Sequence record: ON528731
DNA length: 64,000 nt
Source of the DNA: Shigella phage ESh21
Direction: 5' to 3' (one strand)
Below, piece by piece: positions 134 to 6,682 of the stretch (its first letter is position 1; each line of letters begins with the position of its first letter). The notes under the pieces were generated by a model that searched no databases, had not been told where the DNA came from, and saw nothing but the letters and a program-made list of their open reading frames with translations. A program made the position numbers and the translations under genes.

Positions 134-271
134 ATGAAACACTCTAAAGCATTTGAAGCAGTATTTGGTGATTCCCTGAAAGCAACTGCTGGTAAGTCTG
201 CTGAACATTACGAAACGAAGCGAGTTCGCACTGGTAAGACTGCTCGTAAAGCTGCCAAGAAAGCTGCTTAA
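134..271 (+). CDS. small basic hypothetical protein (45 aa)
   Basis: ATG at 134 with GGAG about 7 nt upstream; stop TAA 269-271; codon usage like neighbouring genes; below the 60-aa ORF-track cutoff; antisense ORF 77..316 looks low-complexity. Confidence 0.3.
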   Translation: MKHSKAFEAVFGDSLKATAGKSAEHYETKRVRTGKTARKAAKKAA

Positions 272-358
272 AATGTTTGACATGGGGGTATGAAGCATGT
301 AAGATTGTACTCCCAATAAGATTTGAATTGATAGTTAATTTGAGAAAGAGGTATTAAA

Positions 359-1207
359 ATGTCTAAAGTTGTTAAAATGAAATCTCCGGTAGAAAAATAC
401 AACGGTAAAGAACTTGAAACTTATCGTTACCTGCTGAAAGATATTTGGTTCTACTACCTGAATACTATTCCACGTCCTCAGAAGGGCAAGTCTGTAGACA
501 AACATTTCCCAGGCAAAGACTGTAATTACAGCGTTTCAATTCTGGCAAAAGACGGTAACAAGCTCTTTAAAGAGTTCACCAAGTCTAAAAAAAATCCAGA
601 TGGTTGGGATAAGGTCACTACAGAGACTGTTGATGCAGATGACTTTGAAGAGAAGTTTGGTTGTGAGCCTCCATTCGAAGCTGACACTTATTACATCCTG
701 AAGGTTAGCCGTTCAGCAGCTTACAAAGATGGTGCTGTATGGTCAGCAAAACAGAGTTTCCCTGTGATGCTGGTTGAAGAACTGAACGGTAAACGTGTTG
801 CGGTTAAGCAACCTATGAAGAAAATTAAGGCAGCAAAATCTGACAAGCATGACGATGACAAGACTTACGATGTTGTCTGTCCAGATATTGCAGTCGGTAA
901 TGGTTCTTTTGGTAGTGTGATTCTTTCGACTCACTTCTACACCTTCGAAGGTAACGTTCTAACTAAGCCAATTCAGGAGCAGTTTATCATTGATACTCTG
1001 GTTCCATACACTGGTGGTACTGGTGGTGCAACCGAGACTGAACTTGATGAAGACGAACTGGCACTGCTTGGTCTCGCAGGTGTTGAAGACAACGGTGAAA
1101 TCTCTGAAGAAGATGCAAAAGATTCTGATGATGATAAAGGTGGTGATGACGATGACGACCTACCAACACCGGATGATGATGATGACGATTTTGATACTGA
1201 AGATTAA
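359..1207 (+). CDS. hypothetical protein with poly-acidic C-terminal tail (possible ssDNA-binding or DNA-mimic protein)
   Basis: 282-aa ORF, RBS GAGAAAGAGG upstream; C-terminus DDDKGGDDDDDLPTPDDDDDDFDTED; sits next to RNase H-like gene. Confidence 0.6.
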   Translation: MSKVVKMKSPVEKYNGKELETYRYLLKDIWFYYLNTIPRPQKGKSVDKHFPGKDCNYSVSILAKDGNKLFKEFTKSKKNPDGWDKVTTETVDADDFEEKFGCEPPFEADTYYILKVSRSAAYKDGAVWSAKQSFPVMLVEELNGKRVAVKQPMKKIKAAKSDKHDDDKTYDVVCPDIAVGNGSFGSVILSTHFYTFEGNVLTKPIQEQFIIDTLVPYTGGTGGATETELDEDELALLGLAGVEDNGEISEEDAKDSDDDKGGDDDDDLPTPDDDDDDFDTED

Positions 1208-1226
1208 TTCTCAGTAGTTACTACAA

Positions 1227-1256
1227 AGCCCTGTACAGAACGTATAGGGCTTTTTC
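1227..1256 (+). terminator. rho-independent terminator
   Basis: hairpin AGCCCT...AGGGCT followed by TTTTT directly after stop of 359..1207. Confidence 0.6.
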
Positions 1257-1269
1257 GTATGGAGGTACA

Positions 1270-3011: not shown

Positions 3012-3766
3012 TGTTTAATTCCAGAGAATCCGTAGTAAATTGGAATCTTCGTTGTGGTAATACTCCAAAGGTTCTATACAGCCCTGAATATTGGGAATCA
3101 CTGAAGAGTCAATCTCTTTGTATGTTGGAAGAAGCTAAAGAGTTAGTGTCAGCAGTTGAAGCAAAAGACCCTGTTGAAACCCTTGATGCTCAGGCTGATT
3201 TGCAGTATGTTTTAGATGGTTTGGTATTCTTGTCACAGCATGACCACGATGGTGCTATGGAAGCTGTTTGCCAGAATAACAACCTGAAATATACAGATAA
3301 CTATCAAGAAGCTGTACAACGTATGTTTGACATTGAGAAACGTACTGGTGATGAATGCTATCTACGCCCGTCAATGGTTGAAGGTAAAGAGTGGTTTGCA
3401 GTAGTACGTAAATCAGATGGTAAGATTATGAAGCAGTCTAATCTCCCAAAAGTTCAGCTTGCAGAGTTTATCGCAGAGGTTGAATCTAAAGAGTTATTCG
3501 TGGTAGTATCTGACACATGTGTTATCTGTCAGGGCTTACTAGGAAGTCTGAGAAGCCTTGGTGTAGATAACTTCACAGAAATTACTCCAATCAGTTCTAA
3601 AGCTGATAGAGATTTCTGTAGAGATAATGACTTGTGGGTTGCAGATATCGTTTACTACGATGGTGAGAAGTTCCATACGACCTCATACCCGAAGTTGAAC
3701 TATGATGCAAATAACCTGAAGAATTGGTTAAAAGGGGTAGGTTATAATGGATTCACAGAACACTAA
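3011..3766 (+). CDS. MazG-like nucleotide pyrophosphohydrolase domain protein
   Basis: LEEAKELVSAVEAKDPVETLDAQADLQYVLDGLVF resembles the MazG EExxE...D helix pair; ATGA overlap with upstream stop. Confidence 0.45.
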   Translation: MFNSRESVVNWNLRCGNTPKVLYSPEYWESLKSQSLCMLEEAKELVSAVEAKDPVETLDAQADLQYVLDGLVFLSQHDHDGAMEAVCQNNNLKYTDNYQEAVQRMFDIEKRTGDECYLRPSMVEGKEWFAVVRKSDGKIMKQSNLPKVQLAEFIAEVESKELFVVVSDTCVICQGLLGSLRSLGVDNFTEITPISSKADRDFCRDNDLWVADIVYYDGEKFHTTSYPKLNYDANNLKNWLKGVGYNGFTEH

Positions 3767-4070
3767 TAAAGCAGAGGTGGCTCAGGAGAGCCATTTCTCA
3801 AACTATAATATTTCTATGACAGTATTCATGAATGATTCACTGTTAGCGAAATATGGTGAAACTCCAGATACACTTCTGGATAACGAACAAGTTCTTAAAG
3901 CTGTCCTGTACAAATATGGCTTTAACATTGATAAAAAGTTCTCTTATGAGATTTGTCAGCACAGAAATACTTATGGTCAAGTAGTTGTAGCTCCTCTGTT
4001 TATTGGTGTAGAACGCACAGATGAGCAGTGGACTTATTTAAAACGAAATCTGGATAGATACCATGTCTAA
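3747..4070 (+). CDS. hypothetical protein
   Basis: 107-aa ORF in operon context. Confidence 0.45.
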   Translation: MDSQNTNKAEVAQESHFSNYNISMTVFMNDSLLAKYGETPDTLLDNEQVLKAVLYKYGFNIDKKFSYEICQHRNTYGQVVVAPLFIGVERTDEQWTYLKRNLDRYHV

Positions 4071-4447: not shown

Positions 4448-6682
4448 ATGATTAAAACTATTCGCAAATCTAACGGAAACGTTGTAACATTCGAGCCTGA
4501 ACGTTTGAATAAGTGGGCTTCATGGGCTGACAAACGAGGTATTATCTGGTCAGAAGTTACAATGGAAGCTATGAAACGTGTCTATGAAGGTTGCACCACT
4601 AAAGAAATGCACCAAGCTATGATTGACGTTTGTATTGATAAGCAAAGTCAAGAATACTCTGACATGGCTGGACGACTTCTGTTAGGTATTATCTATAAAG
4701 AAGCTTTTGGTGGATTCACTAAAGTTCCAAATCTTTACGTATTTGTTAAGAATATGGAAGAGTCAGGTTTATGGGAGAAGATGGATTACTCACGAGAAGA
4801 GTTAGAATACCTTCAAGGCTTCATCGTTCACTCAAAAGATATCTCATATGGTTATGCAGTACTGAAACAGTTCCGTGACAAGTACGGAATCCGTGACATT
4901 AAAACTGGACAACTCTTTGAGTCACCTCAGTTTATGTTTATGGGAATGGCTATGAAAGCCTTTGAGAGACAGCCTAAGCACCGTCGCTTAGAGGATGTTA
5001 TCAAGCTGTATACTTATCTGTCAGACTTGAAAATTAATGCTCCAACTCCTTACCTGAATGGTTTGAGAGCTACTAAGTCAGGTTATGCTTCATGCTGCTT
5101 GATTAAAGCTAACGATACCGCTGAATCACTTGGTATTGCTACAAAGGTAGCTTATGATATGACTACAAAGCAAGCTGGTATTGGTATGCTTATGGAGACC
5201 AGAACGATTGGTGACGGGATTCGTCAGAATACCATTGAGCATATGGGGAAACTCCCTTATTATAAGCTTGTACGTGCTGCTGTAGAGGCTAATAAACAAA
5301 AGAGTCGAGGTGGTTCAGCGAACAACTTCTACACTGCTCTTGACCCTCAGATTGAAGATTTACTTCGTCTGAAGCACCCTACAACGGTTACTTCAAAGCG
5401 TATTAATGAGATGGATTACTCATTTGGAACAAACGATTACTTCTGGCAATGTGTGCAGTACGATACAGATTGGCTACTGTTCTCTTACAAGGACGCTCCA
5501 AAATTGTATGATATGTTCTATACAGCAAGTGCAGATGAGTTTGCAATGGCTGTTGGACATGCGGTTCACACTGGTGTTAAACATAAACGAGTAAAAGCTC
5601 GTGAGATTGCTAAGTTGTTTATCCAGCAACGTTATGCAACTGGTCGTGTTTATCCGTTCTTTACGAACAACGCAAACACACATACGCCGTTCAAAGAACC
5701 TTTGAAAATGTCTAACCTGTGCATGGAAATTATATTGCCAGTTTATGGATTTGAGAAAGAGACAGACCTTTACAGCTACAATGCTGCTAAAGAAGATGGT
5801 GAAGTAGCTCTTTGCTTCCTAGCTAGTTTGGTTGCAGGGAGAATTTCAGAAGATGAATACGCTGACGTTGCTTATTATGCTCTTGCAATGGTTGACTCCG
5901 TTATTGACCTTATGGATTACCCGTATCCGTCGATGTGTAACCATGTACAGAAACGTCGCTCTGTTGGGATTGGCCTTACAAATGTGGCTCATTACCTTGC
6001 AAAGAACTACGTGAACTACTCTTCAAGGGCTGGTAAAACGAAGCTACATGAACTTGCAGAGATGCACTCATTCTATCTGCATGAGGCTTCACTGAGACTG
6101 TCTAAAGAGCGTGGTGTACCTGAGTACATGAAGTTTACTAAGTACCCTGATGGTTGGGTTCCAACTAAGACAGCTAACAAGAAGATTGATGAAAAACATG
6201 ATGCAAAACTAAGATATGATTGGGATGACTTAGCACAACGTATCAAAGAAAATGGTGGAATCCGAAACTCTGTATTAGAAGCTTACATGCCTAACGAGAG
6301 TTCTTCACTAGCAACTAATACGACAAATGGCTTGTACCCAATCCGTGACTTTATTTTAACTAAAAAGTCTGCAACTGGTAACGTACTGTTTATCGTACCA
6401 GACTACGAAGAGTTGAAGTATGTCTATGAAATTGCTTGGGATATTGACACATTTGATATGATTGATTGCTATGCAATTGTTCAAAAATTCACTGGTCAAG
6501 CTATCTCTTCAGATTTCTATGTTGACTACTCGAAGTCTAAGAAGGTATCATTAGAGCAAGCTCTGAAGTACATGATTTATGCTAACTCAGTTGGTATGAA
6601 AACCATGTATTACCTTAACAGTCGTATTGGTGTTGGTAAGTCAGCACTACAAGATACTTACTGTGAAGGTTGTGGTGTTTAG
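4448..6682 (+). CDS. nrdA: ribonucleotide reductase class Ia large subunit
   Basis: 744 aa; N-terminal ATP-cone-like region; C-terminal CEGCGV redox tail; adjacent nrdB. Confidence 0.9.
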   Translation: MIKTIRKSNGNVVTFEPERLNKWASWADKRGIIWSEVTMEAMKRVYEGCTTKEMHQAMIDVCIDKQSQEYSDMAGRLLLGIIYKEAFGGFTKVPNLYVFVKNMEESGLWEKMDYSREELEYLQGFIVHSKDISYGYAVLKQFRDKYGIRDIKTGQLFESPQFMFMGMAMKAFERQPKHRRLEDVIKLYTYLSDLKINAPTPYLNGLRATKSGYASCCLIKANDTAESLGIATKVAYDMTTKQAGIGMLMETRTIGDGIRQNTIEHMGKLPYYKLVRAAVEANKQKSRGGSANNFYTALDPQIEDLLRLKHPTTVTSKRINEMDYSFGTNDYFWQCVQYDTDWLLFSYKDAPKLYDMFYTASADEFAMAVGHAVHTGVKHKRVKAREIAKLFIQQRYATGRVYPFFTNNANTHTPFKEPLKMSNLCMEIILPVYGFEKETDLYSYNAAKEDGEVALCFLASLVAGRISEDEYADVAYYALAMVDSVIDLMDYPYPSMCNHVQKRRSVGIGLTNVAHYLAKNYVNYSSRAGKTKLHELAEMHSFYLHEASLRLSKERGVPEYMKFTKYPDGWVPTKTANKKIDEKHDAKLRYDWDDLAQRIKENGGIRNSVLEAYMPNESSSLATNTTNGLYPIRDFILTKKSATGNVLFIVPDYEELKYVYEIAWDIDTFDMIDCYAIVQKFTGQAISSDFYVDYSKSKKVSLEQALKYMIYANSVGMKTMYYLNSRIGVGKSALQDTYCEGCGV

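Follow-up and report, generated by a model that had tools for sequence, protein, structure and literature searches.

[quoted passage not shown] It is not a new kind of protein, and ours is a re-annotation of modest novelty. The first-pass annotation of the window, by which we mean the whole 64,000-nucleotide stretch analysed (record ON528731), had singled out a 282-aa product with a poly-acidic C-terminus. The open reading frame, which starts at ATG 359, encodes just such a product, with Asp or Glu at 17 of its last 26 positions, and the protein is identical to URY12572.1 of this phage. The accompanying suggestion of an SSB, a class in which such tails are typical, is supported by a T7-type fold and by profile links to gp2.5-like and DUF2815 SSBs.

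The gene is labelled "hypothetical" in nearly all of the ∼300 Felix O1-like phage genomes. In the literature on Felix O1, Felixounavirus, and Ounavirinae, we found no SSB or gp2.5 assignment, and a listing by Kazlauskas et al. (2016) is possible. A single UniRef entry, for a cluster member of 285 aa, already carries the name "Single-stranded DNA-binding protein." Two other depositor labels, "Putative DNA primase/helicase" in JLBYU28 and "methyltransferase" in Yersinia phage P778, were unsupported in every search and were rejected.

A predicted promoter-to-terminator unit among replication genes

The gene appears to be a stand-alone promoter-to-terminator unit (Table 1). The candidate promoter matches the consensus at 10 of 12 positions, and the locations of both its −35 TTG and its −10 hexamer (TAAGAT, TAGAAT, or TAAAGT) are kept in Moogle, Felix O1, and JLBYU28 as well as in the Yersinia, Hafnia, and Erwinia relatives. 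A ribosome-binding site is annotated in Moogle at the position equivalent to the one that we read here. The terminator was not listed by a simple pattern scan and was therefore confirmed through folding and conservation. Its folding energy of −18.8 kcal/mol (z = −4.39) was equalled by none of 200 shuffles, and a terminator is annotated at the matching place in Moogle. Moogle, Felix O1, and the Yersinia phage have a hairpin and T-run at the corresponding position, and the Hafnia and Erwinia phages have an altered version.

Table 1. Features of the SSB-like gene and its product, in positions of the window
Feature	Position	Strand	Basis or remark
Sigma-70-like candidate promoter, TTGACA-17 nt-TAAGAT	277..305	+	Just 5′ of the gene; consensus match only
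Ribosome-binding site, AAGAGG	346..351	+	Sequence read; 7 nt upstream of the ATG
Coding sequence of the 282-aa protein, probable T7-type (gp2.5-like) ssDNA-binding protein	359..1207	+	Stop codon included
Folded core, residues 1–218, predicted beta-rich modified OB fold	359..1012	+	AlphaFold core model and Foldseek
Lineage-specific insertion, about residues 133–170, three short strands and lysine-rich loop KQPMKKIKAAKSDKH	755..868	+	hhalign, alignment
G-N-G-S motif, residues 180–183	896..907	+	Most conserved signature of the whole family
Tyr194, predicted base-stacking aromatic	938..940	+	Alignment-based
Disordered acidic linker and tail, residues 219–282	1013..1204	+	pLDDT <50, composition
Acidic-hydrophobic motif ELDEDELALLGL, residues 228–239, start of tail	1040..1075	+	Conserved
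Tail tip F-D-T-E-D, residues 278–282	1190..1204	+	Conservation among relatives
Intrinsic terminator, 12-bp hairpin then T-run	1225..1258	+	Between the SSB-like gene and the exonuclease gene

The first-pass annotation had placed the gene next to an RNase H. A nuclease does adjoin it, at 1270–2310, but it is a 5′-3′ exonuclease of the FEN/T7 gene 6 type, and thus "RNase H" holds only in the phage T4 sense. Its product matches phrog_107 ("exonuclease") with an E value of 6e-64 and the 5′-nuclease region of Taq polymerase weakly, and in Felix O1 the gene is named gene "6" exodeoxyribonuclease. The wider setting in replication and nucleotide metabolism is as had been described: A MazG-like gene and nrdA lie further downstream, and a primase/helicase, a dNMP kinase, and a DNA polymerase lie upstream in relatives.

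This setting is a stable one. In all Ounavirinae examined, the SSB-like gene sits between the primase/helicase gene and the 5′-3′ exonuclease gene, and this order is kept in the Felix O1, Moogle, Erwinia, Hafnia, and Yersinia phages. Three distant metagenomic lineages have a similar replication module, in which a protein of ∼700–750 aa, probably the polymerase, is encoded between the helicase and the SSB-like gene. Felix O1 has genes for a helicase-primase, polymerase, exonuclease, and ligase, and no other SSB is named in its complete RefSeq record.

Fold and family of the core

Residues 1–218 are modelled with confidence (pLDDT 94.8 and pTM 0.89 in the AlphaFold core model; core pLDDT 88 in another model) as a modified OB fold of the T7 type, basic and rich in aromatic residues. 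This part of the protein has a net charge of +3, a pI of 8.5, and 27 aromatic residues. The first-pass annotation had proposed structure prediction for an OB fold as a check, and the outcome is positive: The core matches only T7-type SSBs, whose OB folds are modified ones. Two Foldseek runs that started from different models and searched 350,542 PDB chains returned at ranks 1–9 only 4KLK, 5ODJ/5ODK/5ODL, 1JE5, and 4JG2 (probability 0.97–1.00, TM by target 0.39–0.53), and at rank 10 the probability was 0.03–0.08 in both runs. The T7-type SSB group has been defined as precisely the four proteins in this match list (PMC5686142). Matches in a viral structure library reach TM values of 0.67 and bear the names ssDNA-binding, DNA helix destabilizing, and DUF2815. 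In the PDB matches the rmsd values are large and the TM values modest, owing to some 40–50 extra residues and to real divergence. Thus, the modest TM values mark the protein as a divergent member of the T7-type group. No SSB of the PF00436 type or of the T4 gp32 type was among the best 50 fold matches.

The best PDB match in both runs (E values of 8e-5 and 3e-4) was 4KLK, a phage-related DUF2815 protein of Enterococcus faecalis, with TM by target of 0.48–0.53; it differs in having 166 modelled residues and 15% identity. We know of no published biochemical characterization of 4KLK. Enc34 ORF6 (5ODJ/5ODK/5ODL; PF10991, formerly DUF2815) is also among the best matches, with TM by target of 0.45–0.48 and a probability of 1.00. 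It shares with our protein the added N-terminal strands ahead of the barrel and a disordered acidic C-terminus, but it has only ∼190 aa and lacks the insertion described below. In Enc34, the primase and the helicase are separate, as opposed to a gp4-type fusion (PMC5686142).

The likeness to T7 gp2.5 (1JE5; PF21265, SBB_T7) is one of overall design. In each protein, a core with a modified OB fold leads into a tail that is disordered and acidic and has an aromatic tip, and the accompanying genes include those for a primase/helicase of the gp4 type, a polymerase of the PolA type, and an exonuclease of the gp6 type. In detail, the two proteins differ considerably. Identity in the structural alignment is ∼14%–18%, TM by target is only 0.39, and the window protein, at 282 aa, is 50 residues longer than gp2.5 (232 aa), to which it adds N-terminal strands and a lysine-rich insertion of ∼40 residues. 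This insertion has no counterpart in gp2.5 or in the shorter family members (200–240 aa). It falls in insert states in hhalign, and most of the distant relatives are gapped across it; its three strands (136–142, 145–150, and 153–156) are modelled with pLDDT >90.

Conserved positions of the core can be paired with positions of T7 gp2.5. In the GNGS motif, N181, G182, and S183 are invariant in 37 sequences, and the motif pairs with GGGS 144–147 of T7 gp2.5 in the alignment. Tyr194, invariant in a 14-sequence alignment, is paired by hhalign with Tyr158 of T7 gp2.5, the residue that has been equated with Trp150 of Enc34 ORF6, which stacks on ssDNA (PMC5686142). By alignment, Tyr194 would therefore correspond to the stacking aromatic of Enc34. 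Lys109 of the T7 protein aligns with Ser117, adjacent to the invariant Arg118.

Direct sequence searches were uninformative. Run with the single protein and with a 14-sequence profile, they gave no match in Pfam, NCBIfam, or the PDB, including none to bacterial-type (PF00436) or T4 gp32-type SSBs, and the 14 close relatives found no Pfam family at E values up to 10. In PHROG, at E values up to 0.01, only phrog_3877, whose function is unassigned, was found (E value 1e-156, full length), and phrog_112 was not reached. Weak matches to a fimbrial adhesin, VirD4, TFIIA, and others (E >0.05) were dismissed as noise. A word-indexed homolog search returned close relatives only. Deeper homologs required an exhaustive profile search followed by two additional rounds, and relatives of 200–240 aa were reached via the N-terminal core and not the tail. 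All 20 distant relatives match phrog_3877, and 12 of them also match phrog_112 ("Gp2.5-like ssDNA binding protein") over the whole core, with a best E value of 8e-14. The family profile further found the protein P0073 (E value 3.5e-9), which passes the PF10991 cut-off (32.6 bits vs. 26) and carries the GNGS...LIPYTGG signature, including the GNGS motif, in common with the family of the window protein. In hhalign, a 31-sequence profile matched T7 gp2.5 with 84.5% probability and an E value of 7e-6; an earlier comparison from a shallow alignment gave 24% and was not used alone. Since the window protein has no direct match to the curated models PF21265, PF10991, and PHROG 112, the homology rests on transitive and structural evidence.

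The acidic tail and its tip

Residues 219–282 form a disordered tail with a conserved aromatic tip and a net charge of −28 over 64 residues, from 30 Asp or Glu and 2 Lys or Arg. The C-terminus reads ...DSDDDKGGDDDDDLPTPDDDDDDFDTED, and shuffling the protein 200,000 times never gave as many acidic residues among the last 26. Of the 69 open reading frames in the window with 100 aa or more, no other comes close to this one in the acidity of its C-terminus: The last 30 residues include 18 acidic ones here and 10 in the runner-up. In relatives, the acidity is kept while length and sequence vary. At the start of the tail, the acidic-hydrophobic motif contains D232, L234, L237, and G238, all invariant in 14 sequences, and a short helix is predicted with low confidence at 232–235.

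The tip is the other conserved element. F278 is the sole aromatic residue of the tail, and both it and T280 are invariant or nearly so among relatives. Every family member has an acidic run with an aromatic residue at or near the C-terminus. Four residues (D-T-E-D) follow the aromatic here and three in most relatives, whereas shorter family members end in Trp or Phe; the C-termini of distant relatives read ...DDW, ...PF, or ...PW. This is a difference from T7 gp2.5, in which the aromatic is C-terminal; its C-terminal Phe (Phe232) has been shown to be essential, and mutants of the T7 tail can be dominant lethal. In tail design only, the protein also resembles E. coli SSB (PF00436), whose acidic C-terminal tail recruits partner proteins through a hydrophobic or aromatic tip. 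The C-terminal motif of E. coli SSB is DDDIPF, and distant family members end in the similar ...D[LIV]PF. E. coli SSB belongs to another OB-fold subtype and has a tetrameric organization.

The primase/helicase of related phages has the same tip. Its tail ends in ...EDEDDCPFETD, and that of the window's SSB-like protein in ...PDDDDDDFDTED. Helicase and SSB tips are alike in Moogle (FETD and FETD, respectively), Felix O1 (FETE and FDTED), Erwinia phage phiEa21-4 (IPFRTE and VPFKTE), and the metagenomic lineage L011 (PPFDIDE and NPFDVED). The pairs thus follow three variants: F-E/D-T-D/E in Felix O1 and Moogle, P-F-R/K-T-E in Erwinia phages, and P-F-D-I/V-D/E in the metagenomic lineage. In Felix O1, such an ending occurs in 2 of 203 open reading frames, those of the helicase and the SSB-like protein. 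The Hafnia phage, L009, and L012 lack such a match. A fraction of 0.029–0.053 of cross-genome pairings reach the observed score, a borderline result of the permutation test, and we therefore report the co-variation of the tips as suggestive only. The tails of T7 gp4 and gp2.5 likewise share a tip arrangement (PMC12339929), ...DTDF in gp4 and ...DGDF in gp2.5, where the present phages have FETD and FDTED. Tentatively, and with some doubt on our part, the tips might evolve together as an address, specific to each lineage, that directs both proteins to a single docking site on the cognate polymerase. If this is true, the docking tolerates an internal aromatic, unlike that of the C-terminal Phe of T7 gp2.5 and E. 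coli SSB.

A working scheme for the protein can be drawn by analogy with T7 and Enc34. The core would coat ssDNA through a basic cleft in which Tyr194 stacks on the bases. Without DNA, the acidic tail would fold back into the same cleft, which would give selectivity for ssDNA over dsDNA. For Enc34 ORF6 and T7 gp2.5, removal of the tail is reported to abolish this discrimination or to raise the affinity. The tip of the tail, at F278, would dock on the phage DNA polymerase at a basic patch, and the tail of the primase/helicase, which carries this F-x-T-D/E tip as well, would use that site too. We propose that this shared use of one site would coordinate polymerase, helicase, and SSB at the fork. 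A role in annealing ssDNA, like that of gp2.5, is also possible.

Competing explanations and significance

The protein might have the T7-type OB fold and yet have another main role: to mediate strand annealing or recombination, or to act through its tail as a scaffold or regulator of the replisome, with the host SSB covering the lagging strand. The computed evidence presented here fits both coating and annealing, phrog_112 is labelled "ssDNA binding protein and ssDNA annealing protein," so that both activities occur in the family, and the lysine-rich insertion and non-terminal aromatic tip are departures from T7. Nevertheless, we consider this unlikely: In T7, one protein does both jobs, and this phage supplies a helicase-primase, polymerase, exonuclease, and ligase of its own and has no other recognizable SSB. 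The position of the gene and its stand-alone promoter and terminator also fit an abundantly made replication protein. It is very unlikely that the likeness in fold and profile is fortuitous, arising from a generic beta-rich fold and low-complexity bias in a protein with an unrelated role. Only the four T7-type SSB proteins score among all of the PDB chains before a sharp cliff, in both runs, and the profile links depend on the folded core and not on the acidic tail. TM values below 0.55, high rmsd, and the lack of a direct match to a curated model would suit a chance resemblance, but the GNGS...L[VI]PYTGG signature recurs in a bona fide PF10991 member, and synteny with T7-like replication genes supports the relationship independently.

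The first-pass annotation had also offered a DNA-mimic inhibitor as an option, and here the results go against it. Such a protein would counter the host, for example by anti-restriction or by sequestering host DNA-binding proteins, with its poly-acidic stretch mimicking the phosphate backbone. Known DNA mimics display acidic residues on a rigid folded surface, whereas here the folded part is net basic and the excess negative charge, extreme as it is locally, lies in a disordered tail of variable length. The tails of Erwinia phages, DDDD[I/V]PF, do resemble the tip of host SSB, and thus competition for the partners of host SSB is conceivable. However, the core is homologous to SSBs, the gene lies in the replication module and not among early anti-host genes, and the Foldseek search of the PDB found no fold match to Ocr- or ArdA-like DNA mimics. 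We regard this explanation as very improbable.

The assignment as a T7-type SSB would fill the sole gap in an otherwise T7-like set of replication genes, and in a myovirus it would complete a T7-like replisome of helicase-primase, polymerase, SSB, exonuclease, and ligase. It would also widen the range of sequences known for T7-type SSBs, a superfamily whose members are hard to recognize from sequence. The matched tips of helicase and SSB are a natural set for work on how acidic tails are directed to partners in the replisome. Felix O1 is a classical phage for the typing and biocontrol of Salmonella, and its relatives, the Ounavirinae, with hundreds of sequenced genomes, have actual or proposed uses in phage therapy and food safety. 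The annotation is transferable to ∼300 phage records and to metagenomic relatives. Phage SSBs are reported as triggers of bacterial defense systems such as Retron-Eco8 (PMC13402713). Thus, knowing which gene encodes the SSB may help to interpret escape mutants of these phages.

The acidic-tailed protein and its annotation

The open reading frame is as the first-pass annotation described it. It has 282 codons, an ATG start, AAGAGG 5' of the start and the C-terminal end ...DSDDDKGGDDDDDLPTPDDDDDDFDTED. Acidic residues account for 17 of 26 positions at this end, a count not reached once when the same protein was shuffled 200,000 times. The last 30 residues hold 18 acidic ones, versus 10 in the runner-up among window ORFs of at least 100 aa. 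Domain anatomy was drawn from 14 aligned relatives, the most distant at 45% identity, and an AlphaFold model. Residues 1-218 form a beta-rich domain modelled with confidence (pLDDT about 88 at full length; pLDDT 94.8 and pTM 0.89 for the core modelled with 37 sequences), and residues 219-282 are predicted to be disordered. The core contains 27 aromatic residues and is basic, with a net charge of +3 and a pI of 8.5; net charge in the tail is -28, and F278 is its sole aromatic residue. Three tail elements are conserved among the relatives (an ELDEDELAxLGL motif, a P-D-D/E element and the tip F-x-T-D/E), and the acidic stretch between them differs in length and sequence.

The window belongs to a Felix O1-like myovirus (Ounavirinae) and shares 96.9% identity with Shigella phage ESh22 across its first 4.5 kb. 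The protein is identical to URY12572.1, a "hypothetical protein" of Shigella phage ESh21, and homologs are present in about 300 phage records. Within a 60-row sample spread evenly over these hits, none was named as an SSB; most read "hypothetical protein", others were unannotated or bore just a gene number, and two had unsupported names. The depositor names "putative DNA primase/helicase" (phage JLBYU28, L002 3001-3858) and "methyltransferase" (Yersinia phage P778, L008 4486-5337) are backed by none of our searches. The best PHROG, 3877 (E 1e-156), has no assigned function, and searches of Pfam, NCBIfam and PDB sequences with the protein gave no match. Named cluster members are "hypothetical" or "uncharacterized" in 32 of 33 cases; one UniRef cluster entry (Salmonella phage SapYZU01) already bears the name "Single-stranded DNA-binding protein". 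Our literature searches found no published assignment of the Felix O1-like gene as an SSB. Annotation of Shigella phage SFPB splits the homolog into two neighboring ORFs, 135 and 150 aa long (SFPB_047 and SFPB_048; P0086 and P0087). The split implies a frameshift, whether from an error in sequencing or because the gene is disrupted. A true disruption would count against essentiality of the SSB-like gene.

Fold and sequence links to T7-type SSBs

The OB fold proposed as a check by the first-pass annotation is borne out in the models. Foldseek searches of 350,542 PDB chains gave the same outcome with the full-length and core models: ranks 1-9 were 4KLK, 5ODJ/5ODK/5ODL, 1JE5 and 4JG2 (probability 0.97-1.00, TM by target 0.39-0.53), and at rank 10 the probability fell to 0.03-0.08. 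These nine ranks comprise T7 gp2.5, Enc34 ORF6 and two DUF2815 proteins, exactly the members of the T7-type SSB group as the Enc34 structure paper defines it, with modified OB folds and acidic unstructured C-termini (PMC5686142). The modest TM-scores are a sign of genuine divergence and of about 40-50 additional residues. Among predicted viral structures, TM reaches 0.67, and some of the matches bear the names ssDNA-binding, DNA helix destabilizing and DUF2815.

Sequence comparison provides a bridge to the same group. An exhaustive HMM search with the family profile against 1.84 billion representatives recovered 24 proteins, the distant ones 200-240 aa long and aligned via the N-terminal core rather than the tail. 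Distant relatives share the motifs FYY, EYxVDxL, AEEFExxFKxxPPxEAExYY, GNGSxG and LVEY, and in every one the tail is acidic, with W or F at or near its end. All 20 match phrog_3877, and for 12 of them a match to phrog_112 ([quoted passage not shown]) spans the whole core (best E 8e-14). A further search with a merged profile recovered the protein P0073 (E 3.5e-9), which scores 32.6 bits against PF10991 (Enc34_ssDNA-bd; Pfam threshold 26) and shares a GNGS...LIPYTGG signature with the window protein. With hhalign, a 31-sequence profile aligned to T7 gp2.5 residues 104-188 (84.5% probability, E 7e-6), pairing GNGS with T7 GGGS and Tyr194, invariant in the close family, with T7 Tyr158. The T7 residue is reported to be experimentally required for ssDNA binding and has been equated with the stacking Trp150 of Enc34 (PMC5686142). 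The window protein itself does not directly match the curated models (Pfam PF21265 and PF10991, PHROG 112); it does have the predicted fold, tail and context of the T7-type SSB superfamily.

Genomic context and rival readings

A replication neighborhood, as claimed at first pass, is evident in the relatives. The Felix O1 homolog, ORF104, lies between genes "4A" (primase/helicase) and "6" (exodeoxyribonuclease), names the depositors borrowed from T7, with a dNMP kinase, a PolA-type DNA polymerase and a ligase nearby; none of the 149 features in that record is annotated as an SSB. The order helicase, SSB-like gene, exonuclease is kept in Moogle and in Hafnia, Erwinia and Yersinia relatives. Three distant metagenomic members have similar modules, comprising a primase/helicase, a protein of ~700-750 aa that is probably the polymerase, the SSB-like gene and an exonuclease. 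From predicted promoter to terminator, the SSB-like gene reads as a stand-alone transcription unit, a layout that fits a protein required in large amounts.

Features of the window and the helicase genes of relatives
Feature	Location	Strand	Details
Conserved 45-aa ORF	134-271	+	Just upstream of SSB-like gene; phrog_4424, E 5e-28
Promoter-like site	277-305		TTGACA-17-TAAGAT; position conserved in relatives aligned
SSB-like gene	359-1207	+	282 aa
Lineage-specific insertion	755-868		Residues about 133-170; three short strands and lysine-rich loop KQPMKKIKAAKSDKH; insert in hhalign versus T7 gp2.5; modelled confidently
Predicted hairpin terminator	1225-1258		Hairpin and T-run; dG -18.8 kcal/mol, z -4.4; same position in relatives aligned
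Homing-endonuclease-like protein, 169 aa	2300-2809	+	Pfam SegE_GIY-YIG, E 5.7e-27
MazG-like pyrophosphatase, 251 aa	3011-3766	+	PF01503, phrog_2144
107-aa protein	3747-4070	+	phrog_4007
Helicase, Moogle	L001 9810-11801		...CPFETD; SSB-like ...DDFETDDE
Helicase, Felix O1	L005 20960-22945		...CPFETE; SSB-like ...EDFDTED
Helicase, Erwinia phiEa21-4	L007 2428-4341		...DDDDIPFRTE; SSB-like ...DDDDDVPFKTE
Helicase, metagenomic L011	1212-3143		...APPFDIDEGEDL; SSB-like ...DNPFDVEDDD

Several neighbors deserve comment. The 45-aa ORF, which Moogle and Felix O1 also have as a small hypothetical gene, has a strongly basic C-terminus rich in Lys and Ala (...KRVRTGKTARKAAKKAA), a curious placement beside the gene of a protein with a -28 tail. 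The 169-aa protein is homing-endonuclease-like because of its SegE_GIY-YIG match; the name "NAD synthetase" given to it by its best PHROG (phrog_447) and by several RefSeq records is apparently a mis-annotation that has spread. The start of the 169-aa gene overlaps the exonuclease gene's end. Between these two, ESh22 and Moogle (L001 14389-14727) have an additional gene for an HNH endonuclease, absent from the window at about 2310, and the ESh22 match falls in two pieces (4991 bp versus 4500 bp of query). This points to presence/absence polymorphism of a homing endonuclease in the replication module. The pyrophosphatase and 107-aa genes form part of a nucleotide-metabolism block upstream of nrdA (4448-6682); the 107-aa protein also matches phrog_3506, which is labelled thymidylate synthase, more weakly (E 1e-12) and over residues 45-96 only.

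The SSB reading offered at first pass gains from the T7-type OB core in the model, the basic core with its acidic disordered tail, the conserved aromatic tip and the replication-module context. Its companion suggestion, a DNA mimic or inhibitor, is unlikely, given that the acidic charge lies only in a floppy tail on a basic, SSB-like core. That the fold match arose by chance is hard to sustain, since the Foldseek hit list is exclusive to T7-type SSBs, the profile links run via the core and synteny agrees. A specialized annealing or scaffold role, which computation cannot tell apart from replicative coating, would be a variation inside the same family. Most likely, the 282-aa protein is homologous to T7 gp2.5 and Enc34 ORF6.

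Tail tips and a proposed mechanism

The most interesting lead of our analysis is that, in several relatives, the gp4-like primase/helicase tail is acidic and ends in a tip matching the one on the same phage's SSB-like protein. The window starts downstream of the helicase gene, and the comparison was made in relatives. Helicase/SSB-like pairs are FETD/FETD, FETE/FDTED, IPFRTE/VPFKTE and PPFDIDE/NPFDVED. Of the 203 six-frame ORFs across the Felix O1 genome, only those of the helicase and the SSB-like protein have the ending [FWY]-x-T-[DEN]. The Yersinia phage tips match in part (FSTT versus FETD), and the match is absent in the Hafnia phage and at the loci L009 and L012. A permutation test with seven genomes or eight was borderline: matched pairs summed to 105 versus 86.5 +/- 9.7 for cross-genome pairings, of which a fraction of 0.029 reached the observed score (0.053 with Felix O1 included). 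Same-genome matching is thus suggestive.

The gp4 helicase and gp2.5 tails of T7 are arranged as in the relatives with matching tips. The T7 gp2.5 tail (...DGDF) anchors on a basic patch at the polymerase front; PDB 6P7E holds a DTDF peptide mimicking the gp4 helicase tail, to which the authors aligned the gp2.5 C-terminus for their starting model (PMC12339929). The titles of Hamdan 2005, Ghosh 2009 and Marintcheva 2009 indicate that a polymerase loop binds helicase-primase and SSB and that the gp2.5 C-terminal Phe is important. In Erwinia phage phiEa21-4, the helicase and gene 96 tails both carry DDDD[I/V]PF followed by three more residues (RTE or KTE). The E. coli SSB tip, DDDIPF, is nearly the same, except that RTE or KTE comes after it in the phage tails.

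Like T7 gp2.5 and Enc34 ORF6, the 282-aa protein has a modified OB core and an acidic disordered tail. It differs from characterized T7-type SSBs in being longer, with extra N-terminal strands, in carrying a ~40-residue lysine-rich insertion and in having three to four more residues after the aromatic tip residue. Ounavirinae proteins have the insertion, and neither T7 gp2.5 nor family members of 200-240 aa do; it might add a DNA contact or serve as an oligomerization element. By analogy with T7 and Enc34, the core would hold ssDNA in its basic cleft with Tyr194 stacking, and without DNA the tail would compete for the cleft, sharpening ssDNA specificity. The tip would recruit the polymerase, or be passed to it, at a site that the helicase tail would use as well. 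Overall, the protein most likely represents a new, divergent sub-family within the T7-type SSBs, which makes for a useful re-annotation.
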